Source: Phycisphaerae bacterium RAS1
Lineage (GTDB): Bacteria; Planctomycetota; Phycisphaerae; UBA1845; Fen-1342
Length of the DNA: 64,000 bases
NCBI GenBank assembly: GCA_007859745.1
Contig: SMLU01000002.1
Coordinates: 52,942 to 116,941 of the forward strand
Direction of reading: 5' to 3'
The translations under genes and the position numbers were made by a program. Below the pieces are notes generated by a model. That model saw nothing but the letters and a program-made list of their open reading frames with translations, made no database searches and had not been told where the DNA came from. How positions within the stretch are numbered: position 1 is the first letter of the stretch; the number at the start of each line of letters is the position of its first letter. Positions 1 to 64,000 of this stretch are shown here, in pieces.

Positions 1-1130
1 CGAACCGCAACGGCCGCGTCGTGGCGGGCGGCGGCGTCCTTGGCCACCTCCTCGGCCTGCTGGAAGCGCGCCTCCAGCTCGCCGCGCCGCTGCTCCAGCT
101 CCGCGAAGCCGGCCTCCAGCCGCTGGGTCTCCTCATGCAGCCCGGCGGCCTTCTGTTCGAGCTGCGCCTGGCGCTGCTCGTGACGAACGGCGCGCGTCTC
201 CAGTTCCGCCTGCTTCTGCTCGACCAACCGCTGCTGGCCCGCCAGGTCTTCGGCCCGGCGGCCGACGCTTTGCCGCTCGCGGCGCAGCGCATCGGCGGCG
301 GCCGACTGCTGCTGCGCCTCGCTCGCCAGCCGCTGGCGCGCGTCCTCCACCTCGCGGACCGTCTGCTGAATCTCGAACCGCCGCGCCTCCAGCTCCGTCC
401 GCCGTGCTTCCAGCTCCAGCGCCTTTCGCTCGACCTCGCCGGCCCGCGACTGCGTCGCGCTCAGCCGCTGCTCCAGCTCGGCGCGGCGCGACTCGAGTTC
501 GCGGCGCAGCTCGTCGAGCTCGCCCTGCTCGGTCCGCAGCGCGGTCCGCTGCTCCTCCAGCGCCGCGCGCTCGCGGACCACCTGGTCCCGCGCCAGTCGC
601 ATGCGGCGCTCCAGCTCCGTCTCGCGCTGCCGCACCAGGCCTATGCGGTGCAGCAGGTTGCGCCGGTCCTGCTCGCGCTGCTGCGCAATGGCGTCACTGC
701 GCACGCGGATCGCGTCGAGGGCCGCGTCAAGCCGCTTCTGGGCGTCAGCCAGTTCCCGCTCACGCGCCGCGACGCGCTGCTCGTGCTGCGCCAGTCGTGT
801 GGCGCGCACCGACAGGTCGATCGTCTGGGCGTCCAGCTCGGCGCTGCGCACCTCCAGCCGCTCCTGCAGGCCGCGCGTCTGCTGCTCCGCGGCGTCGCGG
901 GCTGACTGCCGCGCCGCGAGCAGCTCGCGTTCCAGCTCCTGCTCACGCCGCCGCAGCGCCAGCTCGCGCTGCGCCACTTCCGCCAGGCGCTCGCGGATTT
1001 CGTTGACGATCGGGCGAATGCGGTCGGCCGGCGCTCCGCTCGCGGGCGCCGGCGGCAGGCCGGGAGGCCGGGCGGAATTCGCGGAGGCGGGCGGAGGGTT
1101 GAGCGGCGTGTCGTCGGCGGGAGCCGTCAT
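1..1130 (-). CDS. Coiled-coil protein, N-terminal part; gene runs off the window start. Its ATG is the reverse complement of 1128-1130 (MTAPADDTPLNPP...) and it is divergent from metG.
   Basis: Reverse-complement translation of 1-1130 is stop-free. The N-terminus is Pro/Ala-rich, followed by heptad-like REQELEREL and ELEARR repeats. The ORF track missed it because there is no stop within the window; plus-strand ORFs 21-905 and 404-1006 are its antisense. Confidence 0.6.
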   Translation of the reverse strand, partial: MTAPADDTPLNPPPASANSARPPGLPPAPASGAPADRIRPIVNEIRERLAEVAQRELALRRREQELERELLAARQSARDAAEQQTRGLQERLEVRSAELDAQTIDLSVRATRLAQHEQRVAARERELADAQKRLDAALDAIRVRSDAIAQQREQDRRNLLHRIGLVRQRETELERRMRLARDQVVRERAALEEQRTALRTEQGELDELRRELESRRAELEQRLSATQSRAGEVERKALELEARRTELEARRFEIQQTVREVEDARQRLASEAQQQSAAADALRRERQSVGRRAEDLAGQQRLVEQKQAELETRAVRHEQRQAQLEQKAAGLHEETQRLEAGFAELEQRRGELEARFQQAEEVAKDAAARHDAAVAV

Positions 1131-1263
1131 ACGTGTCGGAATTGTAACCCCCGCGTCCAGTGGCGGCGGTTCCGCGGCTGCTCCGACGCCGCCGCGGCGA
1201 ACCGTTGCCCGGCTCGCGCGCCGACCGTACGATCCTCTCGCCGCTTTGGGAGACGTTGCGTCG

Positions 1264-2958
1264 ATGGCCCAGCGCTACCTCGTGACCGCCGGCTTGCCTT
1301 ACTCCAATAACCGCCTGCACGTCGGACACATCGCCGGCGCGTACCTGCCGGCCGACATCTTCGTGCGCTACCTGCGCGCCTGCGGACACGACGTCCTCTA
1401 CATCTGCGGAAGCGACGACAACGGCGTCGCGATCGAAATCTCCGCCATGAAAGAGGGCCGCTCGCCGCAGGAAATCTGCACGCATTACCACGAGCGGCAG
1501 AAGCAGGATTTCCTCGGCTTGCGGATCGATTTCGACATCTACGGCGGCACGCACCAGCCAGCGTATCGGAAGCTGCATGAGCAGTTCAGCCAGGATTTCT
1601 TCAAACGAATTCACGAGCGCGGCTTCTTCACCAAGAGACGGCTCAAGCAGCTCTACGATCCCAAGGCCCAGCGCTTTCTGCCGGATCGATACGTGCGCGG
1701 CACTTGCTACCACCCTGACTGCAAGAAACCCGGCGCGACCGGCGACCAGTGCGACCAGTGCGGCCGCATGATCGACCCGCTGCTGCTGATCGAGCCGCGC
1801 AGCGAAATCACCGGCGAGAAGGCCGAGGTGCGCGAGACGACGCACTGGTATCTGCGGCTGAACGACTTCGAAAAACCGCTGGCGGCGTGGCTGGAAAGCA
1901 AGCAGGGCGTCTGGCGCTCGAACGTGCTGAACTTCGCGCTGGGGCAGATCAAGCAGGGACTGCCCGAGCGCGCCATGACGCGCGATATTCAGTGGGGCAT
2001 CCCGGTGCCGCTCGACGATCCCGACGCCGCCGGGAAGGTCGTCTTCGTGTGGTTCGACGCGCCAATCGGCTACATCACGTTTACCGCCGCGCTGTGCGAG
2101 CAGCGTTTCGGCGACCGCGAGGCGTACCGGCAGTGGTGGTGCGATCCGAACACGCCCATTCTGCATTTCATCGGCGAAGACAACACCGTCTTCCACGCCC
2201 TGATCTGGCCGGCGATGCTGATGGCCGAGGCGCAGCAGCATCAGCTTCCGTCCTACGTCGTCGCCAACAACTTTCTGAACCTGCGCAAAGGCGGCGAATT
2301 GGAGAAGATCAGCAAGAGCACCACGCCGCCCGACGCGCCCGTCTGGATCGAAGAGTATCTCAAGAAGTACGACGCCGACGCACTGCGCTACTACCTGACG
2401 GCGCTCGCGCCAGAGACGGCCCGGACGGCGTTCGACTTCGAGGAGTTTGTGAATCGAAACGACGGCGAGCTGGTCGCGGCGCTGGGCAATTTCGTGAATC
2501 GCTGCCTCACCTTCGCCCAGAAGTACTTCGAAAACCGCGTTCCGGACACCTCACCGGCAATCGACGCCGACCGGGCGGTTCTCGCCCGTGGAGACGAGGC
2601 GCTGCGCGCCGTGGGCGAGCACATCGAGGGGCATCGCTTTCGCGCAGCCATCGAGGAGGTCATGGCCTTCTCACGCGCCTGCAATCAGTACTTCGGCCTC
2701 CGCGAGCCGTGGAAAACGCGAAAAGACAACGTGCCCGACTGCGGCGCGGCGATCGCCACGTGCATCCACGCCGTGCAGTATCTCGCGACGCTCTGCGCCC
2801 CGTTCATGCCGTCGGCGGCCGAGCGCATGGCCGCGATGCTGAGCCTGCCGGACGGCTGGAAGGCGTGGCAACCGCCGGCACGCCTCCCCAGCGGCGCGCC
2901 GCTGGGCGAGCCGAAGATTTTGTTTACGAAGCTTTCGCAAGCGGAGGCAGCCAAGTGA
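1264..2958 (+). CDS. metG: Methionyl-tRNA synthetase (short form, no C-terminal EMAP/tRNA-binding domain)
   Basis: Class I aaRS motifs: HVGH as PYSNNRLHVGHIAG and KISKS as KGGELEKISKST. CxxC...CxxC zinc knuckle. ATG at 1264 is in frame with ORF 601-2958. Confidence 0.93.
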   Translation: MAQRYLVTAGLPYSNNRLHVGHIAGAYLPADIFVRYLRACGHDVLYICGSDDNGVAIEISAMKEGRSPQEICTHYHERQKQDFLGLRIDFDIYGGTHQPAYRKLHEQFSQDFFKRIHERGFFTKRRLKQLYDPKAQRFLPDRYVRGTCYHPDCKKPGATGDQCDQCGRMIDPLLLIEPRSEITGEKAEVRETTHWYLRLNDFEKPLAAWLESKQGVWRSNVLNFALGQIKQGLPERAMTRDIQWGIPVPLDDPDAAGKVVFVWFDAPIGYITFTAALCEQRFGDREAYRQWWCDPNTPILHFIGEDNTVFHALIWPAMLMAEAQQHQLPSYVVANNFLNLRKGGELEKISKSTTPPDAPVWIEEYLKKYDADALRYYLTALAPETARTAFDFEEFVNRNDGELVAALGNFVNRCLTFAQKYFENRVPDTSPAIDADRAVLARGDEALRAVGEHIEGHRFRAAIEEVMAFSRACNQYFGLREPWKTRKDNVPDCGAAIATCIHAVQYLATLCAPFMPSAAERMAAMLSLPDGWKAWQPPARLPSGAPLGEPKILFTKLSQAEAAK

Positions 2959-3567: not shown

Positions 3568-4971
3568 ATGCAGCTTCCGGTTCTCACCGACACCATCGTC
3601 GCGGTTTCGAGCGAATGGACCGCATCCCCGCTGGCGATCATCCGGCTAAGCGGGCCGCGGGCGCTTGAGCTGGTCGAATCCGTCGCCCCTCTTGGCCGAT
3701 CCGAAGGCCGCCGTCTTTCCGAATCCGCCGCGCCAAGCGGCGGGTCGACGTCCACTCGCGCACATCCTGCAGCGTGGCGACGCGCGTCGCTCCGCGTCGA
3801 GAATCAGCCGGCGGCAAAGCGCGATTCTCACGTTCCTTGCGATGTATTCACCTTCGTCGCCCCGCGCAGCTACACCGGGCAGGATCTGGTCGAACTGCAC
3901 ACGATTGGCTGCTTGCCGCTGGTTCGCACAATCGCGGACCAACTCGCGGAGCGGGGGGCGCGACGGGCACTTCCGGGAGAATTCACAGCCCGCGCGGTCC
4001 TGGCCGGGAAAATCCGCCCCGAGCAGGTGGAGACGATTCTCGGGCTGATTCAGGCGGATGACGCGGCTGCGGCGCGGGCGGCGCGGCGCGGGGCGGGCTC
4101 GACGGCTGCGGCGGTGCGGCAGCGCGTCGCCGAGCGCCTCAGCGACGTCCTGGCGCGAGTCGAGGCCGGGATCGACTTTGTGGACGAAGAGGACGTGCGT
4201 TTCATCACGGACGAGGAACTTGCGGCGGAGATCGCTGCGGCGCTGACGGAACTGGATGGGCTGGACCCGCAGGATGTCGCTGATCAAGCCGCGCTGCGTC
4301 CGCACGTGGCGCTGGCGGGTCTGCCGAACGCCGGCAAGAGCACGCTCTACAACGCCCTGGTCGGCGCGGAGCGCGCCATCGTCTCGCCCGTGATCGGCAC
4401 GACGCGCGACGTGATCAGCGCCGAGCTGGTCATCAACGGAGTCCGCCTGATCCTGCAGGACACCGCCGGATTGCACGGCAGCCCGGGCGAGCTTGAGCTC
4501 GCGGCGCACATTGCGGCCGAACGTGCCGCCGACTCGGCGGAGCTGGTGCTGTGGGCGCACGAGGCGCAGGCGGCTTGGTCCTCCGGCGAGCTCGAAGCAC
4601 TTCGGCGGGTCTCGAGCTCGAAGATCGTCGTATTGACGAAGGCGGACCGCGCGGCCCCGTCGTGCGACGCTTCGGACGGTTACGCTCGACGGTTCCTGAT
4701 CGTCAGCGCCGTCAGCGGAAGTGGCATGTCGGAGTTGCGAGACGCGATCGCTTCCGAATTGGCGGTCGAATCGCGGGAGCGCTCGGGTCCGACTTCTGTG
4801 ATCGACGCGGAGGCACGCGCCGCGCTGCGGCGCGCGGCGTCTGCGACGGGCTTGGAAGTCGTTGCAATGGAGCTCCGTGAATCAGTCGAACGACTTCGCG
4901 GTATAAGCGGCGTTGGGTTGGTTGACGATATTCTCGGACGGATTTTTGGGCGGTTTTGCATCGGCAAGTAG
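3568..4971 (+). CDS. mnmE: tRNA modification GTPase MnmE (TrmE), carrying a ~26-aa in-frame insertion derived from a family-A repeat
   Basis: N-terminal domain DTIVAVSS...RLSGP, G-domain GLPNAGKSTL, DTAG, TKAD, and the C-terminal CIGK tetrapeptide. Start MQLPVL at 3568. Confidence 0.9.
   Translation: MQLPVLTDTIVAVSSEWTASPLAIIRLSGPRALELVESVAPLGRSEGRRLSESAAPSGGSTSTRAHPAAWRRASLRVENQPAAKRDSHVPCDVFTFVAPRSYTGQDLVELHTIGCLPLVRTIADQLAERGARRALPGEFTARAVLAGKIRPEQVETILGLIQADDAAAARAARRGAGSTAAAVRQRVAERLSDVLARVEAGIDFVDEEDVRFITDEELAAEIAAALTELDGLDPQDVADQAALRPHVALAGLPNAGKSTLYNALVGAERAIVSPVIGTTRDVISAELVINGVRLILQDTAGLHGSPGELELAAHIAAERAADSAELVLWAHEAQAAWSSGELEALRRVSSSKIVVLTKADRAAPSCDASDGYARRFLIVSAVSGSGMSELRDAIASELAVESRERSGPTSVIDAEARAALRRAASATGLEVVAMELRESVERLRGISGVGLVDDILGRIFGRFCIGK
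3713..3790. repeat. Family-A palindromic repeat lying in frame inside mnmE: intact left arm, degenerate right arm
   Basis: TTTCCGAATCCGCCGCGCCAAGCGGCGGGTCGACG matches the family-A arm. It translates SESAAPSGGSTS...PAAWRRA, the same peptide signature that intergenic A copies give (SEPAAPSGG...PAAWRGGFG). Confidence 0.7.
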
Positions 4972-8293: not shown

Positions 8294-8364
8294 CCGACGG
8301 ATCGGGAGGAATGGCGAATGGCGAATAGCGAGTCGCGAATCGCAAAGTGCCCTTTGGAATTTCT

Positions 8365-8430
8365 CGGGTGGAACGGGCATCTTGCCCGTTCGTGAGACGG
8401 CGCGAACGGGCGAGACGCCCGTCCCACCCC
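8365..8430. repeat. Family-B palindromic repeat (GGGTGGGACGGGCGTCTCGCCCGTCC ... GGACGGGCGAGACGCCCGTCCCACC)
   Basis: Inverted arms, each arm itself a hairpin. Intergenic, between the ACT gene and ftsK. Confidence 0.8.
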
Positions 8431-8441
8431 AAGGCGCGTCT

Positions 8442-11102: not shown

Positions 11103-11614
11103 CCGGTCCGGACGTGCTTCTTTTCGCCGATGGGGGGAGTATAGCGGGTCTCCGGGGGCAATTCGACGGGCGGCGGCGATGGGAACGTGAGAACGCCGTC
11201 AGAACGTAAGAACGACGTGCACCGGACGGTCGAGCTGAGTCATCGCCTTGCATCAGCCGTGCGACCAGCCAGGCGCAGTCGGATGATGGCAGGCAAGAGC
11301 TGTTTCACTTGGATCAGCGTAGCGACTTTGTGGTTGAGCTTCCAAAAAACGGCTGCAAAGGCTGTGAAAGGTGTCCAAGTCACAGCACAACTCCAGCGCA
11401 CGTGGATCAAATTCCGCGCGCGATGCGCGAAATCCCACAGGCGAGTGGCCATCAGCCGATGCTGTGACGAATTCTAGGCCGACCTGCGTTGCGAAGTCCA
11501 ACTCGGCGGATCGAGGGATCGAGCGTGAGCGCTTGGCGGGGCGTACACCTGGTGTTCGCGGGGCCCGACGCACGTTTCGATATCGATGACGACATACGGG
11601 CGCCGTACTGATCC

Positions 11615-11848
11615 GGCCGCCCTCCGGGCGGAAGAAAATTGGGGATGGGGTTTGTCTACCAGGGGCTGAAGCCCCCGGCAACCATCGTGCGCCCTCCGGG
11701 CGAAGAGCGTACGCTCCCTGAGCGAAGAGCGCACCCTCTGGGTGAAGAGCGCGCCGTGCGCGCTCCGGGCAGCCCGCCCGGAGGGCGAACGAGCGTTGCC
11801 AGGGGCTTCAGCCCCTGGGTTGCAAGCCGCCACCCCTCTTCTTTTTTC
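11615..11848. repeat. Family-C composite palindromic element, copy 1 (~235 bp), ending in a CCCCTCTTCTTTTTT tract
   Basis: CAGGGGCTGAAGCCCCTGGCAAC...GTTGCCAGGGGCTTCAGCCCCTGG nested inverted repeats; near-identical to copy 2. Confidence 0.8.
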
Positions 11849-11889
11849 CGCCCGGAGTCGCCATGCCGCCATGCGGCACACTGGGTGAT

Positions 11890-13375
11890 GAAAATGGGGT
11901 CGAAGGGTACGCTTTCGAGGCGCGGATTGGGAACGGGTTGAAGTCGTCGCCCAGTGAGCTTTGAGCTCGCCCCGGAGTCTGACTCGGACGCCGTGTTACG
12001 CACACTGATTTGTCGCCCCCGTGTTTGCGGGTGAGGACGCAGGACAGGTTGTTGAATGGATTGGCGTCTCCCGTTTCCAGTGCCGGCGGAGCGGAGGTCA
12101 TGTCATGGAGATTCTGTTTGGCTGCTGCGGCGCGTTGGACATTCATCTGAAGTCGATTCAGGCCCATGTGCGGCGACGGAACGCGAACGGAGTGGTCTCG
12201 TCGTTCGCGCAACGTTTCGGCACGACCACGGCCCAGATTCTGGCGCTGGGCGATTGGCTGGCTGAGCACCAGGTCGAGAAGGTCGCGATGGAGGCGACCG
12301 GCGTGTACTGGAAGCCGATCTGGAATCTGCTCGAGGATCGCTTCTCGTTGATGCTGGTCAATGCCCAGCACTTCCACAACGTGCCCGGACGCAAGACCGA
12401 CGTCAACGACGCAGCCTGGCTGGCGCAGTTGTTGCAGTGCGGCCTGCTGCGCGACAGCTTCGTGCCGCCGCGGCCGCAGCGCGAGCTGCGCGATCTGGCC
12501 CGTCAACGGACCGCGCTGGTTGAGGACAAGAGCCGTGTGGTGAATCGAATCCAGAAGACGTTGGAAGACGCCAACATCAAGCTCTCCTCGGTCGCCAGCG
12601 ACGTGGTCGGCGTCTCGGGTCGGGCCATGATCCGGGCCATGATCGCCGGCCAGCAGGACCCCGCCGCACTGGCCGATCTGGCACGCCAGCGGCTGCGGAC
12701 CAAGATTCCCGAGCTGCGCGAGGCGCTGCGCGGCGGCGTGCGCGCGCACCATCGCTTCATGCTGAAGCAACTGATGGATCAGTTGCAGATGTTGGAAGGA
12801 CAGATCGAGGCCTTCGAAGCGCGGCTCGACGAGCTGCTCTCCAACAACCGGGAGCCGATCGAACGCTTGCGCGAAATTCCCGGCATCGACACGACCGCCG
12901 CGCGTCTGATTCTGTCCGAGATCGGCACGGACATGAGCCGCTTCCCCTCCGCCGCACACCTGTGCGCCTGGGCGGGAGTTTGTCCCGGCAACAACGAAAG
13001 CGCCGGCAAATGCAAGAGCGGCCGAACCCGCGACGGCAACCGCTGGCTGCGGCGCGTGCTGGTGCAAGTGGCCTGGGCCGCGAGCCAGAAGAAGGACTCC
13101 TACTTCTACGCCCAGCACCGCCGCATCGCCTTCCGCCGCGGCATGAAGCGAGCCACGATGGCCGTCGCGCGCAGCATCCTGACCACGCTTTACCACATGC
13201 TGAAAACGGGCTCAGACTTCATCGACCTCGGCGTTCAGTTCTTCGACAAGCTCAAACCGATGCGGGCCGTCAACTCGCTTGTGCGTCGATTGGAGGCGAT
13301 CGGATACCAAGTGCAACTCCGCCCCAAGGTAGCCTAGCCACGCCTCCGGAGGCGTATTTTCAGGACAGGGCGGAC
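11890..13375 (+). mobile_element. IS110-family insertion sequence. Boundaries approximate; has a ~215-bp non-coding leader.
   Basis: Transposase ORF plus a lower-GC upstream leader. Lies between family-C copy 1 and the 3' end of the IS200 tnpA. Confidence 0.6.
12105..13337 (+). CDS. IS110-family transposase (DEDD RuvC-like N-domain plus Transposase_20 C-domain)
   Basis: KVAMEATGVYWKPIW; IPGIDTTAARLILSEIGTDMSRFPSAAHLCAWAGVCPGNNESAGK. ATG at 12105. Confidence 0.9.
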   Translation: MEILFGCCGALDIHLKSIQAHVRRRNANGVVSSFAQRFGTTTAQILALGDWLAEHQVEKVAMEATGVYWKPIWNLLEDRFSLMLVNAQHFHNVPGRKTDVNDAAWLAQLLQCGLLRDSFVPPRPQRELRDLARQRTALVEDKSRVVNRIQKTLEDANIKLSSVASDVVGVSGRAMIRAMIAGQQDPAALADLARQRLRTKIPELREALRGGVRAHHRFMLKQLMDQLQMLEGQIEAFEARLDELLSNNREPIERLREIPGIDTTAARLILSEIGTDMSRFPSAAHLCAWAGVCPGNNESAGKCKSGRTRDGNRWLRRVLVQVAWAASQKKDSYFYAQHRRIAFRRGMKRATMAVARSILTTLYHMLKTGSDFIDLGVQFFDKLKPMRAVNSLVRRLEAIGYQVQLRPKVA

Positions 13376-13380: not shown

Positions 13381-13833
13381 TCACTTGAAGACCTCATTCT
13401 CGTCAAACTCAATCCCATGTCGGCGCAGCAGTTCTAGAAACTCCGTTTTGAAATCCATGCGCCGGTGATGCTCCTTTTGCCGCGCGATGTAGGCCTCGAC
13501 CTCGGGCACGGCGGATTTGCTCACAGTGAAGCCGCCGTAACCCTCCTGCCATGAGAAGCGCCCACGCTGCGGCCAGGTCTCGTTGATCCACTTCGAGGAT
13601 CGGCCCTTGATCTGCTGGAGCATTTCCGAATGAGAGAGGTCGGCCCGGTAGCGAATGAGCAGATGAATATGGTCGGGCATGCCGTTGATCGAAAGAAGCG
13701 TGCAGCGCAAGTCGCGAAGGATTCCGCCCATAAATGGGTAGAGGCGCTCTTCCAGTTCGGGAGTGATGAGTATGGCTCGGAGTTTCGTGCTGAACACCGT
13801 GTGGTAGAAGTTCTGCGTGTAAGCGCTGGGCAT
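13381..13833 (-). CDS. tnpA: IS200/IS605-family Y1 HUH transposase TnpA
   Basis: YHTVFSTKLR, HUH motif DHIHLLI, KGRSSKW, and catalytic Y in WQEGYGGFTV, all closely like IS608 TnpA. Start MPSAYTQ at 13833. Confidence 0.85.
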   Translation of the reverse strand: MPSAYTQNFYHTVFSTKLRAILITPELEERLYPFMGGILRDLRCTLLSINGMPDHIHLLIRYRADLSHSEMLQQIKGRSSKWINETWPQRGRFSWQEGYGGFTVSKSAVPEVEAYIARQKEHHRRMDFKTEFLELLRRHGIEFDENEVFK

Positions 13834-13855
13834 GGCGGGCTCCGTCCGCCCTCCG

Positions 13856-14127
13856 GGCGGAAACACGATCCGGGTGGGGCCTGTCTACCAGGGGCTGAAG
13901 CCCCTGGCAACAATCGTGCGCCCTCCGGGCGAAGAGCGATGCTCCTGACCGATCCCAACGGGAACCCGATGGCCCTGGCAACAATCGTGCGCCCCCCCCG
14001 GGAGACGAGCGTGCACCCAACGGGCGAAGAGCGTGTGCGCTCCGGGCAGCCCGCCCGGAGGGCGGACGCTCGTTGCCAGGGGCTTCAGCCCCTGGGCTGC
14101 AAGCCGCCACCCCTCTTCTTTTTTTCC
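13856..14127. repeat. Family-C composite palindromic element, copy 2 (~270 bp, with an internal ~60-bp duplication), abutting the tnpA 5' end
   Basis: Shares more than 200 bp with copy 1, including the hairpin CCAGGGGCTGAAGCCCCTGG and the T-rich tail. Confidence 0.8.
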
Positions 14128-15062: not shown

Positions 15063-15099
15063 TGTCACTTGAGGCGCCGCGGCATCGAGGAGCGCGGGA

Positions 15100-15170
15100 G
15101 TCTGGGGGACCGGCCTCTGGCCGGTCTCGCGTCGGCCGTGAGAATTAAGACCGGTCCGAGGCCGGTCCCC
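15100..15170. repeat. Family-G palindrome: GGGGGACCGGCCTCTGGCCGGTC...GACCGGTCCGAGGCCGGTCCCCC
   Basis: Inverted repeat. Partial copies also at about 7750-7790 and 41685-41700. Confidence 0.6.
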
Positions 15171-15192
15171 CACATTCGACCTTCCCGGCCGC

Positions 15193-17592: not shown

Positions 17593-17617
17593 CGAGGAAG
17601 TGGGAAGTGAGAGCGGG

Positions 17618-17732
17618 CTTTCCGAGCCGCGACCGTGAGGGAGCGGAGACTTGAAGAACCGCTTGCTTACGCGCGCGGCTCGGATCTTGCCGCCGCGCGC
17701 GGCTCTGATCTTGCCGCCGCGCGCGGCTCCGA
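17618..17732. repeat. Family-D palindromic repeat (TCCGAGCCGCGACCGTGAGGGAGCGG ... CCGCTTGCTTACGCGCGCGGCTCGGA)
   Basis: Inverted arms with a variable spacer and tandem GATCTTGCCGCCGCGCGCGGCTC sub-repeats. Confidence 0.75.
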
Positions 17733-19027: not shown

Positions 19028-19105
19028 GGTGTGAACTCCTGCGGGTTTTCCGCATGCTAGCGCGCGGCATGCGCAGCCGCAAGCAAACCGGACGCCGCGG
19101 CGGTC

Positions 19106-19206
19106 TTTCCGAACCCGCCGCGCCAAGCGGCGGGTTGACGATCGCGCGCGAGCGGCGCCTCGCAGGCCGGGGAGGTCGACTCGCCGCCTGGCGAGGCGGG
19201 TTCGGA
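19106..19206. repeat. Family-A palindromic repeat (TTCCGAACCCGCCGCGCCAAGCGGCGGGTTGACG ... inverted arm ... GGGTTCGGA)
   Basis: Full two-arm copy, intergenic. Confidence 0.85.
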
Positions 19207-19268
19207 GATGTCTGCCCGCCGAGCCTCCCAATGATTGGTCACACGCCGGTCGCGATATAATCGGGCGT

Positions 19269-24327: not shown

Positions 24328-24448
24328 GGCGTACTCCGAGTGTCACAAAAGGAATAGTATCGCCCACCGCGCGCGATTGCATCGCGCGGGGAGTGATGGT
24401 GATGCGCCGGGTGTGACCGGAGATTGTCGCGACTCAGCGGGCGAGTCT

Positions 24449-24549: not shown

Positions 24550-24585
24550 AATACGGCCGCGTCGGAAGAACGGCCCGCCGTCCGG

Positions 24586-27300: not shown

Positions 27301-27345
27301 AAATGTTCACAACCTCTCTCGCCCGTCCCTCGTTTCAACAGGCTG

Positions 27346-39655: not shown

Positions 39656-39855
39656 TGGGCCTGGTGGATCACGGCGCGCGTGTGCGCGCCGACCCGCAGA
39701 GCCCCAAGCGCCAGCGCGCCGGCCTTTCGCGCGACGGACGCCGCCTCGCGGCAACCCCCGCGCGCTGGCGCTTCGGCCTCGGTTGCCGCGTACCCGCGCA
39801 CGGTCATTTACATCGGTGCGCTGATCGTCCGACGTCACGGTTGTTCAGGCCATCC

Positions 39856-40263: not shown

Positions 40264-40284
40264 CAACACGTTCAGCAGGGGGTA

Positions 40285-40350
40285 ACGTCGGCTCCGTGTG
40301 GCCGACGATGCGCGAATACCGCCGTCGGCCACCGAGGGCCGACGCTACCG
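40285..40350. repeat. Family-F palindrome
   Basis: GTCGGCTCCGTGTGGCCGACG...CGTCGGCCACCGAGGGCCGACG. Confidence 0.65.
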
Positions 40351-46174: not shown

Positions 46175-46224
46175 GGCGCGCTGGATGAGCGCCGGACGCG
46201 CACCGAGATTGCTGTGGCGCGTCT

Positions 46225-46312
46225 GATCCGAGCCGCGACCGCGAGGGAGCGGTTCTTCGTCGATCGGAGCGCCGTGCTTTCAGAACCGCGCCCTTACGGT
46301 CGCGGTTCGGAT
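46225..46312. repeat. Family-D palindromic repeat
   Basis: ATCCGAGCCGCGACCGCGAGGGAGCGG...CCGCGCCCTTACGGTCGCGGTTCGGAT. Confidence 0.75.
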
Positions 46313-48328: not shown

Positions 48329-48366
48329 CGCTAACCGGGTGTGCCTGTTTCCGGGCGGGCGGTCTT

Positions 48367-48488
48367 CTTTCCGAACCCGCCGCGCCAAGCGGCGGGGTGA
48401 GGTGCGCGCTGTGCTCGGCGTCAAGGTACGACGCGCCGCTGCGAACGCGCCCGGACGTCACCCCGCCGCTTGGCGCGGCGGGTTCGGA
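48367..48488. repeat. Family-A palindromic repeat
   Basis: Full copy with a longer spacer. Confidence 0.85.
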
Positions 48489-48586
48489 CAAGCCGGCGTG
48501 GTTGTCGGAGTTTCCGGGCACACGCAGCTAACGCGACCGTCCGTTCCCGCTTGACTTCCTGCGACAATATGTTACCATTTAGTCAC

Positions 48587-49408: not shown

Positions 49409-49452
49409 CCGGAGTTGAGACCGCGCGTGCAAGGAAGCTGTCCCAAAACTCC

Positions 49453-49517
49453 TTCCGAGCCGCGACCGTGAGGGAGCGGAGCCTGAAGAACCGCTTGCTT
49501 ACGCGCGCGGCTCGGAT
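49453..49517. repeat. Family-D palindromic repeat
   Basis: TTCCGAGCCGCGACCGTGAGGGAGCGG..CCGCTTGCTTACGCGCGCGGCTCGGA. Confidence 0.75.
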
Positions 49518-49664: not shown

Positions 49665-49955
49665 GTGAAGTGGATTGCATCTATTGTTGCCGGCGTTTCG
49701 ATCATCGGTCTGGCCGCCGCGGCTGTCGCGGATGAACCGGCCGCCGCGAAACCGCGGGCGTCTGAAGCGTCGGCCAAGCCTGAAGCCGAGCAACGGCTCG
49801 AGCGGATCAAGAAACTGGCCGGCGCGTGGGAGTCCGGCGACGAAGACGGCGCCGGTATGGCCGACACGCAGGCGTACTATCGCATCGTCTCCGGCGGCAC
49901 GGCCGTGGCGGAGTTTCTCATGCGCCCGGGTGGGACGGGCGTCTCGCCCGTCTAA
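49665..49955 (+). CDS. Small secreted hypothetical protein (96 aa); its C-terminus runs into a family-B repeat
   Basis: Signal peptide MKWIASIVAGVSIIGLAAAAVA. The last residues GGTGVSPV are repeat-derived. Confidence 0.4.
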   Translation: MKWIASIVAGVSIIGLAAAAVADEPAAAKPRASEASAKPEAEQRLERIKKLAGAWESGDEDGAGMADTQAYYRIVSGGTAVAEFLMRPGGTGVSPV

Positions 49956-49990
49956 TTGGGCCGGGACGGGCGAGACGCCCGTCCCACCCA
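49927..49990. repeat. Family-B palindromic repeat
   Basis: GGGTGGGACGGGCGTCTCGCCCGTC..GGGACGGGCGAGACGCCCGTCCCACCC. Confidence 0.85.
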
Positions 49991-50056
49991 AGTCATCGTA
50001 GCTGACACTTCGTTAGCGCTTCCCGTGAGTGAGTTGGACGTTCGGAGAATTCACGC

Positions 50057-50755: not shown

Positions 50756-50798
50756 TCGGCGGTAGCGCTGGTATAGCCAATCAGAATTGGTGCATCAT

Positions 50799-50933
50799 GG
50801 GTGGGACGGGCGTCTCGCCCGTCCCCGCGGTCTCAGGAACGGGTAAGATTCCGGTTCACCCGAACGGTGCTCACATGTCCTCTTGCCCGTCGCGCGGGAC
50901 GGGCGAGACGCCCGTCCCACCCATTGAGATGCA
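50799..50933. repeat. Family-B palindromic repeat, extended double copy
   Basis: Two outer arms plus internal half-arms spanning 135 bp. Confidence 0.8.
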
Positions 50934-52092: not shown

Positions 52093-52161
52093 AGGGAAAG
52101 ACCCTCACAGATTCGCGAAACGGCGTTGCCTATCATACCGACGCGCGCTACGGCACAGGCC

Positions 52162-52225
52162 TTTCAGAGCCGCGACCGTGAGAGAGCGGTTCTTCGAGCC
52201 TTTCCGAGCCGCGACCGTGAGAGAG
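52162..52225. repeat. Family-D half-arms, two tandem copies, interrupted by an IS insertion
   Basis: CAGAGCCGCGACCGTGAGAGAGCGGTTCTTCGAGCCTTTCCGAGCCGCGACCGTGAGAGAG. Confidence 0.75.
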
Positions 52226-53700
52226 TGAGAATAAATCCCCCTTGCCGGGGATGGTACATTATTCGACATGGACACGACGATGCTGATTGCCGGAATGGAT
52301 GCCGTGATGAACGACCCAGTATCGGAATCGACGGGGCGGCGTGCGTTGGCGGAGCCGCCGCGGCTTCGGCGGCCGAATCGCGAGCAGTCGTTGCTGCTGC
52401 CGTGCTGTCTGGAGGATCTGCTGCCGGCGGATCACGCGGCGCGGGCGGTTTGGTCGGTCGTGGAGCGGCTCGATCTTTCGGCGTTCAGCGCCCCGCTCAA
52501 GGCGCGCGGCGACGAGCCGGGCCGGCCGGCGACGGATCCGCAGTTGCTGACGGCGTTGTGGCTGTACGCGACGATCGAGGGGATTGGCAGTGGGCGCGAG
52601 ATCGAGCGACGCTGCGGCTGCCAGGACGCTTTTCGCTGGCTGTGCGGCGGCGTGCCGGTGAACTATCACACGTTGAATGACTTCCGCGTCGGTCACGGGG
52701 CGGCGCTGGACGAACTGTTTTCGCAGGTGTTGGCGGTGCTGATGCACAAGCGGATCGTGAGCGTGCGTCGGATTGCGCAGGACGGAACCAAGGTGCGGGC
52801 CGACGCCGGGCGGCACACCTTCCGCCGCGAGGCGACGCTGCAGCGTCAACTGACGGAAGCCCGCGCCCATGTGGCGGCGGTCAAGGCCCAGTCGGACAAC
52901 CCTGCCGCGGATGCGCGACGGCGTGCCGCGCAGGAGCGTGCGGCCCGGGAGCGGGTCGAGCGAATCGAAGCGGCGTTGGCCGAGTTGCCGAAGATTGGCG
53001 CAGACCAGCAGCAGTCCAAGCGGCCGGACGTGCGTGCCAAAGAGCCGCGGGCCTCGACGATCGACCCGCAAGCGCGCGTCATGAAGATGCCCGACGGCGG
53101 CTACCGTCCGGCGTATAACGTACAACTGGCAACCGACGTGGAGAGCCGCGCGATTGTGGGGGTGGACGTCACCCAGGCCCGCAGCGACCACCAGCAAGCA
53201 GCGCCGCTGCGCGCCCAGGTGGAGCGGCGCAGCGGCGCGAAGGTGGTAGAGCACCTGCTCGACGGCGGCTACGTGCAGTTGGCCGAGATCGAGCGCGCCG
53301 AAGCGGCGGGCACGCGCATCTATGCGCCGCCGCAGAAGACCGGGAACGACACCGCGGGCTTTGCGCCCAAACGCTCTGACGGTCCGGGCGTGGCGGCCTG
53401 GCGCGTGCGCATGGGAACGCCGGCGGGCCAGACGATCTATAAGCAGCGAGCCTCGACCGCCGAGCCGGTCAACGCCGACTTGAAACGGTATCGCGGACTG
53501 GCGCAATGCGTCGTGCGCGGGCTGGCCAAAGTACGCTGCCAGGCCCTTTGGGCCGCCCTCGCCTACAACGTGATGCACTTCACCGCGCAGCTCGTCACCT
53601 GACCAACGGTGAGCGAATGAACCCGCCGGTGCAGCCGAAGTAAACAAGCGAATCACGAGCCGCAGACCATGCGACAAGGAAACCGACGCCGGCCAAAGGA
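52226..53700 (+). mobile_element. IS5/IS1182-like insertion sequence (boundaries approximate) inserted into a family-D repeat cluster
   Basis: Transposase ORF with candidate terminal inverted repeats TGAGAATAAAT... and ...AGTTCTCAGTCT. Flanked on both sides by CGTGAG(A/G)GAG from repeat D. Confidence 0.6.
52268..53602 (+). CDS. IS5/IS1182-family DDE transposase
   Basis: N-terminal InsH-like domain RPNREQSLLLPCCLEDLLPADHAARAV. The C-terminal DDE-region identification is weaker. Confidence 0.75.
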   Translation: MDTTMLIAGMDAVMNDPVSESTGRRALAEPPRLRRPNREQSLLLPCCLEDLLPADHAARAVWSVVERLDLSAFSAPLKARGDEPGRPATDPQLLTALWLYATIEGIGSGREIERRCGCQDAFRWLCGGVPVNYHTLNDFRVGHGAALDELFSQVLAVLMHKRIVSVRRIAQDGTKVRADAGRHTFRREATLQRQLTEARAHVAAVKAQSDNPAADARRRAAQERAARERVERIEAALAELPKIGADQQQSKRPDVRAKEPRASTIDPQARVMKMPDGGYRPAYNVQLATDVESRAIVGVDVTQARSDHQQAAPLRAQVERRSGAKVVEHLLDGGYVQLAEIERAEAAGTRIYAPPQKTGNDTAGFAPKRSDGPGVAAWRVRMGTPAGQTIYKQRASTAEPVNADLKRYRGLAQCVVRGLAKVRCQALWAALAYNVMHFTAQLVT

Positions 53701-53707
53701 AAAGTTC

Positions 53708-53893
53708 TCAGTCTCGTGAGGGAGCGGTTCTTCGAGCCTTTCCGAGCCGCGACCGTGAGGGAGCGGTTCTTCGAGCCTTTCCGAGCCGCGACCGTAAGGG
53801 AGCGGTTCCTGGCGTCTCCGCGGTTCCTGGCGTCTCCGCTGCCGTACGGTGATTGCCGGATCCGCTCCCTCACGGTTGCGGCTCGGAAGGGTC
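53708..53893. repeat. Family-D cluster: three tandem left half-arms, then spacer and right arm
   Basis: GTGAGGGAGCGGTTCTTCGAGCCTTTCCGAGCCGCGACC occurs three times, followed by CCGCTCCCTCACGGTTGCGGCTCGGA. Confidence 0.8.
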
Positions 53894-53895
53894 TC

Positions 53896-54270: not shown

Positions 54271-54323
54271 CTGGCCGGTCGCCTTTACAGCAGGTCGGTC
54301 TTGGCGGACCGATCTCTTTTTTC

Positions 54324-54389
54324 GGGTGGTACGGGCATCCTGCCGGTTCCTGACCGCGCACGGACGGGCGAGACGCCCGTCCCACCCCA
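54324..54389. repeat. Family-B palindromic repeat
   Basis: GGTGGTACGGGCATCCTGCCGGTTCC...GGACGGGCGAGACGCCCGTCCCACC. Confidence 0.8.
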
Positions 54390-54411
54390 ATCGATTCTCG
54401 GAGTATATGCC

Positions 54412-55425: not shown

Positions 55426-55556
55426 GCGGCGTTTGCCGTAGGCGCCCCCGCGTGCGCGAGTCGGCGCCGCATTTTCAGAACGCGAAGCGCAAGCGAGCGC
55501 CCATGGCGATGTGCGCTCGCTTGCGACTTCGAGTGGTTCCGATTCAATGATTTTCT

Positions 55557-55610
55557 CGTGGGGAGCTCGGCGTCCCGCCGGTGCGCACCGGCGAGACGCC
55601 GATGCTCCCC
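55557..55610. repeat. Family-B variant palindrome
   Basis: GGGGAGCTCGGCGTCCCGCCGGTGCGCACCGGCGAGACGCCGATGCTCCCC. Confidence 0.55.
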
Positions 55611-55772: not shown

Positions 55773-57124
55773 CTACGCCGGGGCGGGTCGCCGGGGCGGG
55801 CCGGTGCGTAGGCGGGCGAGGATGCGGGCGAATAGTTCGTGCAGGGGATAGGCGCTCGACAGGTGCAGCACGACTCGCCGAACGCTGGTGACGATCCGCG
55901 CGGCGACCTTGAAGAGCCTGAGCCGGATGGTGTCGGTCTGGGCCTGCGCCAGTTCGGTGTCGAGCAGCGCGGTGCGGCGCAGGTGCTCGACCAGCACGTA
56001 GGCGGCGCTCGACAGCAGCAGCCGGAATTGATTGGCGATGAACGCGTGGCAGCTGGTTCGGTCGGCGAACAGCATGAGCTGCTGCTCCTTGATGCGATTC
56101 TCCATCTCGCCGCGCTGCGTGTAGAGGTCGTCGTAGATCTGCTGCGGACGGCGATCGATGAGGTTGGTGACCACGAAGCGGACGTTCGGGCCTTGCGGCA
56201 GATGTTCGGCCTTCACGATCACGCGCCGCGCGCGATCCCAGGTCTGCGCGGCGTACTCGAATTCGTGGAAGTTTCGCACCTTCTGATTCGCGGCCTCGAA
56301 TTGTGCCTGGGCCGCCGCCATCCACGGTGCGACCTGTTTTTCGAGCGTTTTGTTGCGCGCCAGGCCCAGCACGTACTGCACGTCGTGCCGGTCGCCCCGC
56401 GCATCAGCCGCCAGCGGCAGAAGCCCGAATCGCCGCGCACGATGATCCGCACCGCCGGCCAGACCTGCCGCAGCCGCGTCACCAGCAGCTTGAGAATCGC
56501 GGCGCTGTGCAGAGCCGCATCGATGTTGCTGGGCCGCAGATAGCTGACCAGCAGCCGATCGCCGCAGAACACGTACAGCGGCAAAAAGCAGTAGCAGTCG
56601 TAAAAGCCGTGAAAGAAGCGGCCGTCCTGTTTGCCATGCAGCGGGTCGTGCGTGGCGTCGAAGTCCAGCACCAGTTCCGCCGGGGGCGCGTCATACGACG
56701 CGATGAACTGCCCGACCAGCGCCGCCGCCAGACGCCCCAGCGCTTTGCGATCGACGCGATTCTCCAGCCGGCACAGCGTCGGCGCGCTGGCCAGCGGCGC
56801 CGCGGCGTCAGGCGTCTGCTCGGCCAGAACCGCAAACAGCGGATCGCTGCGCAGCGTGGCGTGATCGTTCAGATCTTCGTAGCCCAGCGCGATGCCGAAA
56901 ATCCGCTGCGCCAACATCGTCCGCTGCGCATGCACAATCTTCGCCGGATCACGCGGATCAGTCAGACACCCGGCCAGCGCCTCGACCAGGCCCACACGCC
57001 GATCCACTTCCCGCAGCAGCAACCCGCCCGCATCCGTCGTGAGCCGCCCACCCGCAAAATCGCCCACAATCTTCTGCCGCCCCAGACTGGAAAACAGCAA
57101 CCCCTGGCCGTTACACTCTGTCAC
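55773..57124 (-). pseudogene. IS4-family DDE transposase, frameshifted (ORFs 56219-57124 and 55773-56381 overlap in different frames)
   Basis: The N-terminal part reads ...YLRPSNIDAALHS... The C-terminal part YTQRGEMENRIKEQQ matches the IS4 Y(2)R(3)E(6)K signature. The two frames overlap around 56219-56381. Confidence 0.7.
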
Positions 57125-59365: not shown

Positions 59366-59381
59366 TTGCTATGCATTATCC

Positions 59382-59457
59382 GATCCGAGCCGCGACCGTA
59401 AGGGAGTGGTATTTCGACGGTCGATTGGCCACCGCTCCCTTACGGTTGCGGCTCAGA
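59382..59457. repeat. Family-D palindromic repeat
   Basis: ATCCGAGCCGCGACCGTAAGGGAGTGG...CCACCGCTCCCTTACGGTTGCGGCTCAGA. Confidence 0.8.
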
Positions 59458-59464
59458 AATTAAA

Positions 59465-62424: not shown

Positions 62425-62565
62425 GTGTACCTCCAAGTCGGCGCCGCCATACGCAGCGAACCACCGCCGAATGCTCGCGGACCGCAGGTCATTCGTCAAC
62501 GCGGTGGCGCCTTCGGGTTGTGGGTGAGCGTTGCCACGGTTCTTAGCAGATGTCGCGGGGCGGGC

Positions 62566-62672
62566 CGTTTTTCCGAACCCGCCGCGCCAAGCGGCGGGTT
62601 GACGTCCTCGACCTATGCGGCGCGGCTCGCCTACGATCGTCAACCCGCCGCTTGGCGCGGCGGGTTCAGACA
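62566..62672. repeat. Family-A palindromic repeat
   Basis: Full two-arm copy. Confidence 0.85.
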
Positions 62673-62765
62673 GACAGGCCCCGCGGACAGACAGGCCCCG
62701 CGGACAGACAGGTCCGCGGACAGACAAGCCGGCGGCACCACAAGCCCGCGGCCAGCGAAGCCGGC
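62672..62765. repeat. Imperfect tandem repeat, about 17 bp x 4-5 (GGACAGACAGGCCCCGC)
   Basis: cagacagacaggccccgcggacagacaggccccgcggacagacaggtccgcggacagacaagccggcg. Confidence 0.7.
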
Positions 62766-62842
62766 GGACAGCGATGCTCGCCGAGTCTGCTGCGCTCCGG
62801 CGATCTCTTGCCTGTACCTCCTGAGCGACTACCATCGCCGCG

Positions 62843-64000
62843 ATGCTCGCTATTTTTCGCGCCACGCACTTGGTGCTGATGGTCGGACTGCTGTCGCCCT
62901 ACGCGGCGCCCCAGGCGGCTCGGCTCGGCTTGTTCACGCACCAGCGGGATGAGCTGGCTGATCCGCAGGGCGTCGCCTTCAAGGCGGATGGGTCCATTCT
63001 CGTCTGCGACGCGACGGCTCGGGTCATCCGGCGGCTCTCACCTCAACTTGTCCCGATTGCGGAGACACCGTTGGCGGCCCGGCCTGGTACGCCCATGCGG
63101 CCGGTCGGAGTGGCGGTTGATCGCGACGGGCGCGTCTACGTTTCCGACGCCGCGGCCGACTGTGTTCGCGTTCTCGATGTTGACGGCGCGCCGCTTAAGA
63201 TCATCGGACGGCGCGGACGCGGCGACGACGAGCTGTGCGACCCGGCGGGGATCGCCGTGCACGGAGATCACATTTTCGTCGCCGATAGCGGCAACCACCG
63301 CATCATGCGTTTCTTGCGAGAGGGGACGGCGGCGGCGCCGATCGGTCGCTACGGGCAGGCCGCGGGCGAGTTGAATCGGCCGCTGGGCGTCGCGCTGGAC
63401 GGCCAGGGGAATATCTACGTCGCCGACACGGACAACCATCGCATTCAGAAATTCGATGCAGCCGGCGGCTTTCTCAAGATGTGGGGAGATTTCGGCTATT
63501 TTCCAGGCCTGCTGAGCGAGCCGAGCGGCATCGCGTTTCACGCCGGCCAGGTCTACGTTGCTGACAAGTTGAATCACCGCATTCAGGTGTTCAGCAGCGA
63601 CGGCGACTTGGTTTATGAGTGGGGCCTGCACGTGTTTGAGCCGCACGAGGGCCGCGGCAAGTTCCACTATCCCAGTGCGCTGGCGATCGCCGAGGATGGC
63701 GGGCTGGCCGCGGTGGCGGAGTCGTTCGAAGACCGCGTGCAGCTTTTTGGGCTGTCGAGCGGGCCGACCAGCGACATCCCGCCCCTGCCGCCGATGGAGC
63801 CCGGTCTGAGCTCGCACTTCGGCCCGCCGGTCTCGGTCGGCGGCAAGCTGCTGGTATTGAGCGAGCCGGAGTCGCGCAAGGTGCTCATCTACGATTACAC
63901 GCAGCCGACGCCGATCCAGATTCACAATTTCGGGGCGTTCGGCTGCCGGCTGGGGCAGTTCTCGCGGATTTCCGCGGTTGCGCTCGACCCCGGGCGGGAC
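62843..64000 (+). CDS. NHL-repeat (six-bladed beta-propeller) protein, 5' part; continues beyond the window
   Basis: Repeated NHRI(M/Q)(R/K)F..G and GxLxxPxGVAxD NHL units. In-frame stop at 62822 and first ATG at 62843. No stop before the window end, which is why the ORF track missed it. Confidence 0.7.
   Translation, partial: MLAIFRATHLVLMVGLLSPYAAPQAARLGLFTHQRDELADPQGVAFKADGSILVCDATARVIRRLSPQLVPIAETPLAARPGTPMRPVGVAVDRDGRVYVSDAAADCVRVLDVDGAPLKIIGRRGRGDDELCDPAGIAVHGDHIFVADSGNHRIMRFLREGTAAAPIGRYGQAAGELNRPLGVALDGQGNIYVADTDNHRIQKFDAAGGFLKMWGDFGYFPGLLSEPSGIAFHAGQVYVADKLNHRIQVFSSDGDLVYEWGLHVFEPHEGRGKFHYPSALAIAEDGGLAAVAESFEDRVQLFGLSSGPTSDIPPLPPMEPGLSSHFGPPVSVGGKLLVLSEPESRKVLIYDYTQPTPIQIHNFGAFGCRLGQFSRISAVALDPGRD

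Follow-up and report, generated by a model that had tools for sequence, protein, structure and literature searches.

Repetitive extragenic palindromic (REP) sequences, which build the bacterial interspersed mosaic elements (BIMEs) of Enterobacteria and the REP doublets forming hairpins (REPINs) of Pseudomonas, are short imperfect palindromes arranged as inverted pairs, present in many copies and several families and mostly extragenic. In Di Nocera et al. 2013 (PMC3733652), REPs are sorted into GTAG- and CGTC-tagged super-families with Planctomycetes among eight phyla, many tyrosine transposases with flanking repeats are described in the planctomycete R. baltica, Y1 genes lying between long inverted repeats (TIRYTs) are termed 'TIRtrons', and intragenic REPs are said to add 20-30 residues. 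Here we analysed a 64-kb stretch of the genome of Phycisphaerae bacterium RAS1 (Planctomycetota), called the window below and meaning the whole of that stretch, which contains numerous palindromic repeats and a gene for a Y1/HUH tyrosine transposase. Repeat counts cover the window together with other genomes and metagenome loci. We consider it probable that the window holds several REP-class families of non-autonomous elements that have spread by insertion, likely via HUH/Y1 transposases acting in trans.

The RAS1 repeats share with REPs and REPINs the short imperfect palindromes in inverted pairs, the multiple families and copies, and a mainly extragenic position biased to the 3' ends of genes. 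A GT[AG]G tag lies directly 5' of the stem in families D (GTAG) and B (GTGG), doublets may join two different stems (family B in the window, family A in the metagenome-assembled genome (MAG) CAZXUI01), and CAZXUI01 also contains tandem mosaic arrays. However, no gene of the REP-associated tyrosine transposase (RAYT) type flanked by units of families A to D was found in the window or in the MAG and metagenome loci searched, the GTAG tag is missing from families A (flank TC[AC]GAAC) and C, the host is a Phycisphaerae planctomycete, and the local density is high, at about one hairpin arm per kilobase. Families D and B fit the GTAG-type REPs of PMC3733652. Family A, read on the other strand as CGTC-A[AC]CCCGCCGC-TTGGC-GCGGCGGGTT, resembles the CGTC-type REPs, which the text of that paper describes as head-to-head dimers with an unpaired CGTC at one end, an 8-9-bp stem that begins with A-T pairs, and a 4-5-nt loop (5 nt in family A), although the tag and the A-T pairs are absent from the family A copies of two MAGs. 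The RAS1 repeats are thus a good new example of a known, REP/REPIN kind of element and not a new kind.

Repeat families and their excess over chance

Twenty-nine palindromic repeat elements were catalogued in the window (Table 1), amounting to 3,242 nt, or 5.1% of the window and ~28% of its intergenic DNA. Self-comparison and repeat finding agree on the same loci, all of which fold into long hairpins. An earlier, sequence-only reading of this DNA had reported dense and diverse palindromic repeats, in about 35 copies, with a shared nested architecture of REP/REPIN type; that architecture was borne out, and the count was close to ours. The families are lettered A to I for this analysis, and the letters may differ from those used earlier. 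Family A comprises five full doublets and one decayed copy (in mnmE), B six copies, C seven loci including two tandem arrays, D three copies and E two large composites, with one copy each of F, G, H and I. The H palindrome may be a member of a further repeat family with copies elsewhere in the genome.

Inverted pairs occur in families A, B, C, D and F, with arms of 24-43 nt and a complementarity of 82-100%. The family A arm, TCCGAA-CCCGCCGC-GCCAA-GCGGCGGG-TTGACG, forms head-to-head pairs around a partly conserved spacer of 28-39 nt. Tags face outward both in family B, with the arm GGGTGG-GACGGGCG-TCT-CGCCCGTC-CC and the tag GTGG, and in family D, with the arm GTAG-CGTCGGCC-CTCTGC-GGCCGACG; three copies of B join a variant stem (AACGGGCA...TGCCCGTT) to the canonical one. 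The family F arm is GGGG-GACCGGCC-TCT-GGCCGGTC. Family C arms (TCCGAGCCGCGACCGTGAGGGAGCGGTTC) pair with an inverted copy or form tandem arrays with a 39-nt period, and are poor hairpins when alone (4-bp stem, or 7 bp with one G-T pair). The earlier statement that each arm is itself a perfect hairpin therefore stands for A, B, D, F and the modules of E and G, and holds only weakly for C. The families had also been called unrelated, which proved incorrect, since B, D and F are all built as a tag followed by an 8-bp stem with a short loop, and E and G share a two-hairpin module. A CRISPR array was considered and dropped, as unique spacers are absent and only 39-nt tandem units are present.

The repetition is well above chance. 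Core matches with at most three mismatches numbered 10 for A, 9 for B, 11 for C and 5 for D, compared with means of 0.00-0.01 in 100 dinucleotide shuffles of the window. Perfect hairpins with stems of at least 9 bp were about fivefold more frequent than in shuffles (24 vs 4.6 ± 2.7, maximum 10), and 21 of the 24 lie inside catalogued elements. The repeats are hence over-represented relative to random palindromes within the window. The high G+C content (65-70%) would favour an origin as chance palindromes of GC-rich DNA; however, a relative with an 87%-identical S9 peptidase lacks comparable repeats over a 22-kb stretch, and GC-richness alone therefore does not make the pattern. An assembly artefact, which the sequence-only reading had also raised, is opposed by an independent Logan contig that is 100% identical over 4,294 nt and spans the right-hand E element, F and part of one C copy. 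The same families also occur in two other MAGs. The chance that the pattern reflects random palindromes or misassembly is close to nil.

More than half of the intergenic gaps contain an element (24 of 42), and among gaps of at least 120 nt the proportion rises to 20 of 27, in line with the earlier claim that the repeats occupy most intergenic gaps. On our gene map, elements were found in 7 of 10 convergent, 13 of 21 same-direction and 4 of 11 divergent gaps; three of the four element-bearing divergent gaps adjoin transposase genes. Convergent and same-direction gaps are thus mostly filled, and divergent promoter gaps of the host are mostly free of elements. A run of four or more T residues was found at only 2 of 56 element flanks, which indicates that the elements are not canonical intrinsic terminators; if they affect transcripts, they would do so as REP-like 3' structures. 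Direct translation of the arms gives the peptides SEPAAPSGG, PAAWRGGFG, GTGVSPVP, GRDARPT and FPSRDRE, which occur 31 times in open frames over the elements, in support of the earlier suggestion that many small open reading frames (ORFs) here are spurious translations of repeats.

Hairpin conservation, insertion into genes and turnover

The 21-nt core of family A was scanned against 185,579 species genomes. This yielded 41 loci in CAZXUI01, the MAG of an uncultured Planctomycetales bacterium, and 10 in JBFXAM01, a Phycisphaerae MAG, together with scattered single matches in unrelated GC-rich genomes; families B, C and F are likewise present in CAZXUI01. In that MAG the A hairpin alternates in inverted orientation with a variant-stem hairpin, and the pairs are tandemly repeated in a manner resembling enterobacterial BIMEs. 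For an analysis of stem pairing, 140 family A sites from the window and the two MAGs were chosen by the 5' flank TC[ACG]GAA and the loop GCC[AG]A alone. Perfect 8-bp stems were present at 120 of the 140 sites, and stem positions 4, 5 and 6 change together with full compensation (GCC/GGC, CGT/ACG, CCT/AGG). Pairing reached 95.7%, compared with 80.5% when partners were shuffled, which is evidence that the family A hairpin is under selection. Of the two family A flanks, the copies in these MAGs retain TC[AC]GAAC, and the CGTC tag at the other end is not conserved.

CAZXUI01 also contains a composite repeat of ~280 nt (L066:5270-5560, L031:2710-3000, L034:6600-6890, L065:3180-3470 and L029:370-660), made up of a double-hairpin module like those flanking the Y1 gene, a third hairpin (CGACAGGTC-GGA-GACCTGTCG), an F-type hairpin and tandem GAGACCGGTCCCCCAA units.

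The exact 23-nt hairpin of family B, GGGACGGGCGTCTCGCCCGTCCC, has a wider distribution. Among the matches listed, which are soil and peat contigs (L078-L197; median G+C 59%), it commonly lies just past a stop codon. A second hairpin often comes next, with GTGGAG...CTCCAC as the closing sequence. Most of these listed contigs have a lower G+C content, probably come from unrelated organisms, and carry one hairpin each.

The sequence-only reading had placed repeats inside four genes, and this held for three of them. The clearest case is the S9 peptidase, which aligns with a solved homolog on either side of residues 199-231 and carries a 21-residue insertion, GMGVSPVPADSVNGRDARSTLS, relative to eight aligned homologs; neither the 87%-identical ortholog nor six further homologs in the alignment have it. 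The additional 63 nt of DNA form a complete B doublet, in frame. In MnmE, the left arm of a family A copy is translated as SESAAPSGG, followed by its decayed remainder, in a length-variable loop of the N-terminal domain. The final codons and the TAA stop of a larA-like gene are supplied by a family C arm, as read from the sequence. For the fourth gene, the ORF from ATG 37352, the D doublet precedes a predicted membrane segment and there is no later in-frame start before that segment, so that an intragenic position is plausible though not proven. In-frame palindromic insertions of ~20-30 residues are known from the Rickettsia palindromic elements (RPEs) and from intragenic REPs of Opitutus terrae, as mentioned in PMC3733652, and those in the S9 peptidase and mnmE are similar. 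They differ from these in that just two to four of the 29 window elements are intragenic. Homologs P0129 (of the S9 peptidase) and P0242 (of MnmE) each have their own, unrelated insertion at the loop that holds the repeat-derived insertion in RAS1, and both loops seem to tolerate insertions repeatedly.

The repeats also differ between lineages at the same position. The gap downstream of ftsK contains a B doublet in RAS1 and an A array in CAZXUI01. Furthermore, the distance from ftsK to mlaE is 3,126 nt in RAS1 compared with 176 nt in CAZXUI01, where the cassette formed by the Y1 gene and its flanks is absent, and thus the cassette was either inserted in RAS1 or lost in the MAG.

Three insertion sequences (ISs), of the IS110, IS1182 and IS1380 types, adjoin repeats (the last, IS1380-like, at 55773-57124; the others in Table 1), and the doublets have inverted ends. 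The repeats might therefore be regarded as miniature inverted-repeat transposable elements (MITEs), that is, deletion derivatives of the DDE or IS110-type ISs of the window, moved via terminal inverted repeats with target-site duplication. Several observations make this very unlikely. The IS ends are unlike the repeat arms (those of IS1182 are TGAGAA.../...TTCTCA), and the IS1182 element lies within a C arm array and the IS110 element within a hairpin loop with CT on both sides, so that the repeats are targets of the ISs and not their derivatives. In addition, neither the precisely mapped S9 insertion nor the surroundings of the six B copies show a target-site duplication, and the arms are hairpins in their own right, a feature typical of REPs and not of the inverted repeats of MITEs. 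The 67 nt flanking the IS1182-family element are direct repeats with 94% identity, and the IS1380-like transposase (DDE_Tnp_1_4) consists of two overlapping ORFs, probably split by a frameshift.

A second alternative to spread by transposase-driven insertion is that the elements are regulatory hairpins of the host, serving as terminators, 3' mRNA stabilisers or protein-binding sites, which selection maintains and which recombination or gene conversion spreads or makes uniform, no transposase being involved at present. The bias to gene 3' ends, the avoidance of most divergent promoter gaps of the host, the covariation of the stems and, among the matches listed, the occurrence of the same B hairpin just past stop codons in many unrelated metagenome contigs all fit this explanation, as does the lack of an identified enzyme for families A to D; CGTC-type REPs, moreover, reportedly have no dedicated transposase (PMC3733652). 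However, T-runs are too rare at the flanks for canonical intrinsic terminators, in-frame copies inside genes are hard to square with a regulatory need, the same orthologous gap is filled by different families in two genomes, and a relative of similar divergence has none of the repeats. We therefore rate purely regulatory hairpins as unlikely. A host function acquired after insertion would be compatible with spread by insertion and does not compete with it.

The Y1 gene, its flanking modules and the Acido-Lenti-1 motif

It had been stated that no predicted product of the window explains the repeats. This was wrong for at least one family: the gene at 13381-13833, which had been overlooked, encodes a Y1/HUH transposase and is flanked by family E, with family G as a gene-less counterpart. 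The protein matches Pfam Y1_Tnp (PF01797) at 2.5e-27 and passes the NCBIfam IS200 model NF033573 (72.4 bits, cut-off 55). Its HUH motif is DHIH and its Y motif YIARQKEHH, a sequence also found in four homologs, fits the signature Y---Q--HH. More than 100 protein clusters with 80-91% identity to it were found, mostly from Phycisphaerae assemblies and metagenomes; most of these clusters were seen on one contig. RAYT genes are single-copy, vertically inherited and syntenic among relatives, but the neighbourhood of the Y1 gene is a different one at each locus inspected.

In the loci examined, the flanks of the Y1 gene are inverted copies of one three-hairpin module. Upstream of the gene, a small hairpin, CCGCCCGGAGGGCGG, lies just before the start codon and a double-hairpin module, consisting of an 8-bp stem with a TGAA loop, a 12-nt linker and a 5-bp stem, lies farther out; the downstream side is mirrored. 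Each flank is enlarged in RAS1 to a full palindrome of two modules. Inverted modules flank homologous Y1 genes in L002, L003, L198, L199/L200 and L139 as well, which come from other organisms with differing neighbourhoods, and the downstream copy is degenerate in L199/L200. The link between Y1 gene and flanking modules is thus present in six loci, RAS1 included. The stem of hairpin 1 covaries between loci (CCAGGGGC, CCAGTGAC, CCAGGGAC, CCGGGGAC). A covariance model of the E module, R1, was built from seven module sequences that did not include L139. Within the window its strong matches are the four E modules only, and outside the E cassette the best of the remaining full-length matches, at 15 bits, is a G arm. 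Elsewhere it recovers all flanks of homologous Y1 genes and also both flanks of the Y1 gene in metagenome contig L139, whose product is only 41% identical to the window protein and has the Y motif YVLNQPEHH (Y---Q--HH). R1 also found solo modules in seven related MAG loci in which no Y1 gene was detected by tblastn with the window Y1 protein. In two related genomes, the surroundings of the Y1 gene (within 1-3 kb) contain RNA domains of group II introns (L002:8737-12208 and L003:12729-12925).

The downstream flank in RAS1 is separated from the Y1 gene by the IS110-family element, which sits in the loop of the small hairpin. IS621 and other IS110-family elements are said, in reports attributed to Choi and co-workers in 2003 and to Tobes and Pareja in 2006, to insert into REP sequences. 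The window element is similar in lying in the loop of a repeat hairpin with CT on both sides, but its target is a flank hairpin of the Y1 cassette and not a classical REP, and it is a single case.

The cassette can be compared with three kinds of Y1 system. It resembles IS200/IS605 elements in its Y1 transposase with HUH and catalytic tyrosine motifs; however, those elements, which occur in multiple identical copies, have unlike left and right subterminal hairpins and no terminal inverted repeats, whereas the window flanks are inverted copies of one module. The position of the gene between long inverted repeats with self-complementary tracts recalls the TIRtrons of PMC3733652, although most published TIRYTs are of class 2.1 with a helix-turn-helix tail (PMC6006769) and the window protein is IS200-like. 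The third kind is the TnpA_Y1 subclass 1.2 of Quentin et al. 2018 (PMC6006769), which has the signature Y---Q--HH, is IS200-like yet does not behave as an IS, is mostly cyanobacterial or from Bacteroidetes, has a low genomic copy number, and generally lacks the typical terminal structures of IS200. The window and L139 proteins match this subclass by the signature, and both are close to IS200 transposases; they differ in the conserved inverted hairpin modules on both sides of the gene in six loci.

Family G consists of two inverted modules that match the Rfam family RF01687, Acido-Lenti-1, at 55.3 and 39.8 bits (gathering score 37). In L139, matches of 40.6 and 39.6 bits at 265-310 (-) and 791-836 (+) bracket the Y1 gene at 328-744. 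E-type flanks have the same two-hairpin layout and score below the gathering threshold (32 bits in L199, 22 bits for the window E arm), and Acido-Lenti-1 has no match at E < 0.1 in L002 and L003; the link from E to the Rfam family is therefore drawn from these weaker scores together with L139 and L199. The simplest reading of these sequences is that the Acido-Lenti-1 motif would be the terminal hairpin module of Y1 cassettes, with G as a gene-less miniature.

Rfam files RF01687 as a small RNA of Acidobacteria and Lentisphaerae, and the motif was proposed as an RNA in PMC2864571. The scores of the G arms above the gathering threshold accord with G, and perhaps E, being genes for a small structured RNA. 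Here, however, the matches are strand-symmetric pairs with or without a Y1 gene, in a planctomycete and a metagenome contig; they are inverted pairs on opposite strands that bracket the Y1 gene in L139, and related E modules bracket a homologous Y1 gene in five further loci. A strand-symmetric pair around a transposase gene resembles terminal DNA recognition sites and not a small RNA gene, and we regard the RNA explanation for these elements as highly improbable. The broader proposal, that Acido-Lenti-1 is not a small RNA gene at all but a DNA module at both inverted ends of IS200-like Y1 (Y---Q--HH) cassettes, and that gene-less pairs such as 33280-33500 are miniatures of these, is a tentative one, which we put slightly below an even chance.

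Proposed mobilisation, genomic context and significance

According to the mechanism that we favour, the REP-class elements, which are short GC-rich hairpins, mostly in inverted doublets of the BIME or REPIN type and sometimes in tandem arrays, would behave as non-autonomous DNA elements and spread by insertion. They would persist mainly in convergent and same-direction gaps; now and then an in-frame insertion would be tolerated where it falls in a surface loop or at the end of a protein. Their spread is likely driven by HUH/Y1 tyrosine transposases that act in trans, recognising hairpins in single-stranded DNA and cutting them; the Y1 gene between the family E modules may be one such candidate enzyme, and G a module pair without the gene. 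That Y1 enzymes mobilise the elements, families A to D in particular, we infer from architecture and association.

Several results weigh against this mechanism. No transposase for families A to D is present in the window, and 350 kb of MAG loci and 800 kb of metagenome loci likewise yielded no RAYT gene flanked by A to D units. A tblastn search with the Y1 protein over all these loci gave nothing near A, B, C or F copies, and among the matches listed no transposase stands beside the B-core matches in 120 metagenome loci. Two pairs of A copies lying 0.5-0.65 kb apart in MAG loci enclose only a STAS-domain ORF or spurious-looking ORFs. The Y1 protein falls below the NCBIfam RAYT model NF047646 (31.2 bits, cut-off 80), and its PDB matches are all IS200-type transposases, none of them named REP-associated; judged by these matches, it is not a classical RAYT. 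E-type modules in the window occur only around the Y1 gene, and G is only weakly similar to E (R1 gives G 15 bits, and Rfam gives the E arm 22 bits). The exact B hairpin, furthermore, is widespread in lower-GC soil and peat contigs, so that hairpins as simple and GC-rich as this may originate or spread without depending on any single enzyme. A weak tblastn match at 40351-40419, beside a D copy, was considered as a transposase and rejected, as it is part of an EEP-family gene.

The gene map of the window was built here from third-position GC content (GC3) and Pfam matches and comprises ~43 genes, among them those for MetRS, MnmE, RNase R, FtsK, MlaE and SmpB, two extracytoplasmic function (ECF) sigma factors, a DEAD helicase and an ABC transporter cluster. 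For three of the encoded proteins (Y1 transposase, S9 peptidase and MnmE), NCBI lists 100%-identical entries under the name RAS1. An Rfam scan of the window gave one c-di-AMP riboswitch and the two Acido-Lenti-1 matches, and no tRNA genes were found in the 64 kb. The riboswitch (51 bits, 30564-30733) lies upstream of a gene for a 759-aa SPFH/Band 7 protein (30792-33071). The region 1-1270 has long open frames on both strands with high third-position GC and coiled-coil-like repeats (21-nt periodic CTCCAGCTC motifs) and no Pfam match; the MetRS domain begins only at residue 226 of its ORF.

Table 1 Repeat elements, Y1 gene and insertion sequences of the RAS1 window
Feature	Positions	Strand	Structure and location
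Y1/HUH tyrosine transposase gene	13381-13833	-	150 aa (annotated form); ORF 13381-13866 with upstream GTG start
Family E composite palindrome	11612-11857		Modules 11656-11704 (+), 11773-11821 (-); downstream flank of Y1 gene, cut off by IS110 insertion
Family E composite palindrome	13841-14124		Modules 13885-13933 (+), 14050-14098 (-); upstream flank of Y1 gene
IS110-family insertion sequence	11858-13366	+	Transposase ORF 12021-13337; in 3-nt loop of hairpin CCGCC[CT]CCGGGCGG, CT on both sides
Family G, two inverted Acido-Lenti-1 modules	33280-33500		33282-33327 (-), 33453-33498 (+); 125 nt apart
Family A left arm	3707-3760	+	Decayed remainder to ~3800; in frame inside mnmE (annotated 3568-4971; ORF from 3490)
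Family A inverted doublet	19093-19210		Arms TCCGAACCCGCCGCGCCAAGCGGCGGGTTGACG / reverse complement
Family A inverted doublet	24439-24553		Between STK-WD40 gene and polyprenyl synthase gene
Family A inverted doublet	35391-35504		Between glycosyltransferase gene and smpB
Family A inverted doublet	48359-48492		Downstream of PhoH-PIN gene
Family A inverted doublet	62561-62674		
Family B doublet	8360-8432		Left arm is variant stem; downstream of ftsK
Family B doublet	27208-27319		
Family B doublet	44661-44745	+	Net 63-nt in-frame insertion in S9 peptidase gene 44057-46174
Family B doublet	49918-49992		25-nt arms, 100% complementary
Family B doublet	50789-50933		70-nt spacer; between convergent genes
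Family B doublet	54318-54391		Variant left arm
Family C doublet	17615-17690		Arms TCCGAGCCGCGACCGTGAGGGAGCGGTTC / reverse complement; between convergent genes
Family C, two units	28141-28272		Right unit gives last codons and TAA stop (28250-28252) of larA-like gene
Family C doublet	46222-46311		Between convergent S9 peptidase and LOG genes
Family C doublet	49451-49517		
Family C tandem arms	52158-52225	+	39-nt period; left flank of IS1182-family element
IS1182-family insertion sequence	52226-53710	+	Ends TGAGAA.../...TTCTCA; transposase 52268-53602; inserted within family C array, 39-nt period
Family C tandem array and inverted arm	53697-53891		Right flank of IS1182-family element
Family C doublet	59379-59459		Inside HlyD-ABC transporter gene cluster
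Family D doublet	29603-29693		Diverged
Family D doublet	37478-37566		Inside ORF starting at ATG 37352
Family D doublet	40282-40350		Between convergent genes; overlaps stop of EEP-family gene
Family F doublet	15098-15177		Between convergent genes; more copies in CAZXUI01
H, single-copy 140-nt palindrome	39668-39807		24-nt arms; inside ORF with only a sub-threshold LigD_N match
I, two adjacent hairpins	55480-55610		Second resembles B/F (..GGCGTCTCGCC..); beside IS1380-like element

These findings leave the current picture of REP biology unchanged. For the annotation of RAS1, the repeats account for a class of spurious ORFs and misplaced start codons, and the window further suggests that one Rfam 'sRNA' family deserves re-examination as a transposase recognition site. 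REP and REPIN repeats have been best studied in Proteobacteria, and the window provides a compact, well-mapped case in a cultured Phycisphaerae planctomycete, bringing together at least six families, a datable in-frame insertion in an enzyme gene, ISs that have landed inside repeats, and a candidate enzyme gene beside its own hairpin modules. If the proposal on Acido-Lenti-1 is true, the Y1 cassettes of Planctomycetota and soil bacteria, with their IS200-like enzyme, would represent a second REPIN-RAYT-like partnership that is independent of the known one.

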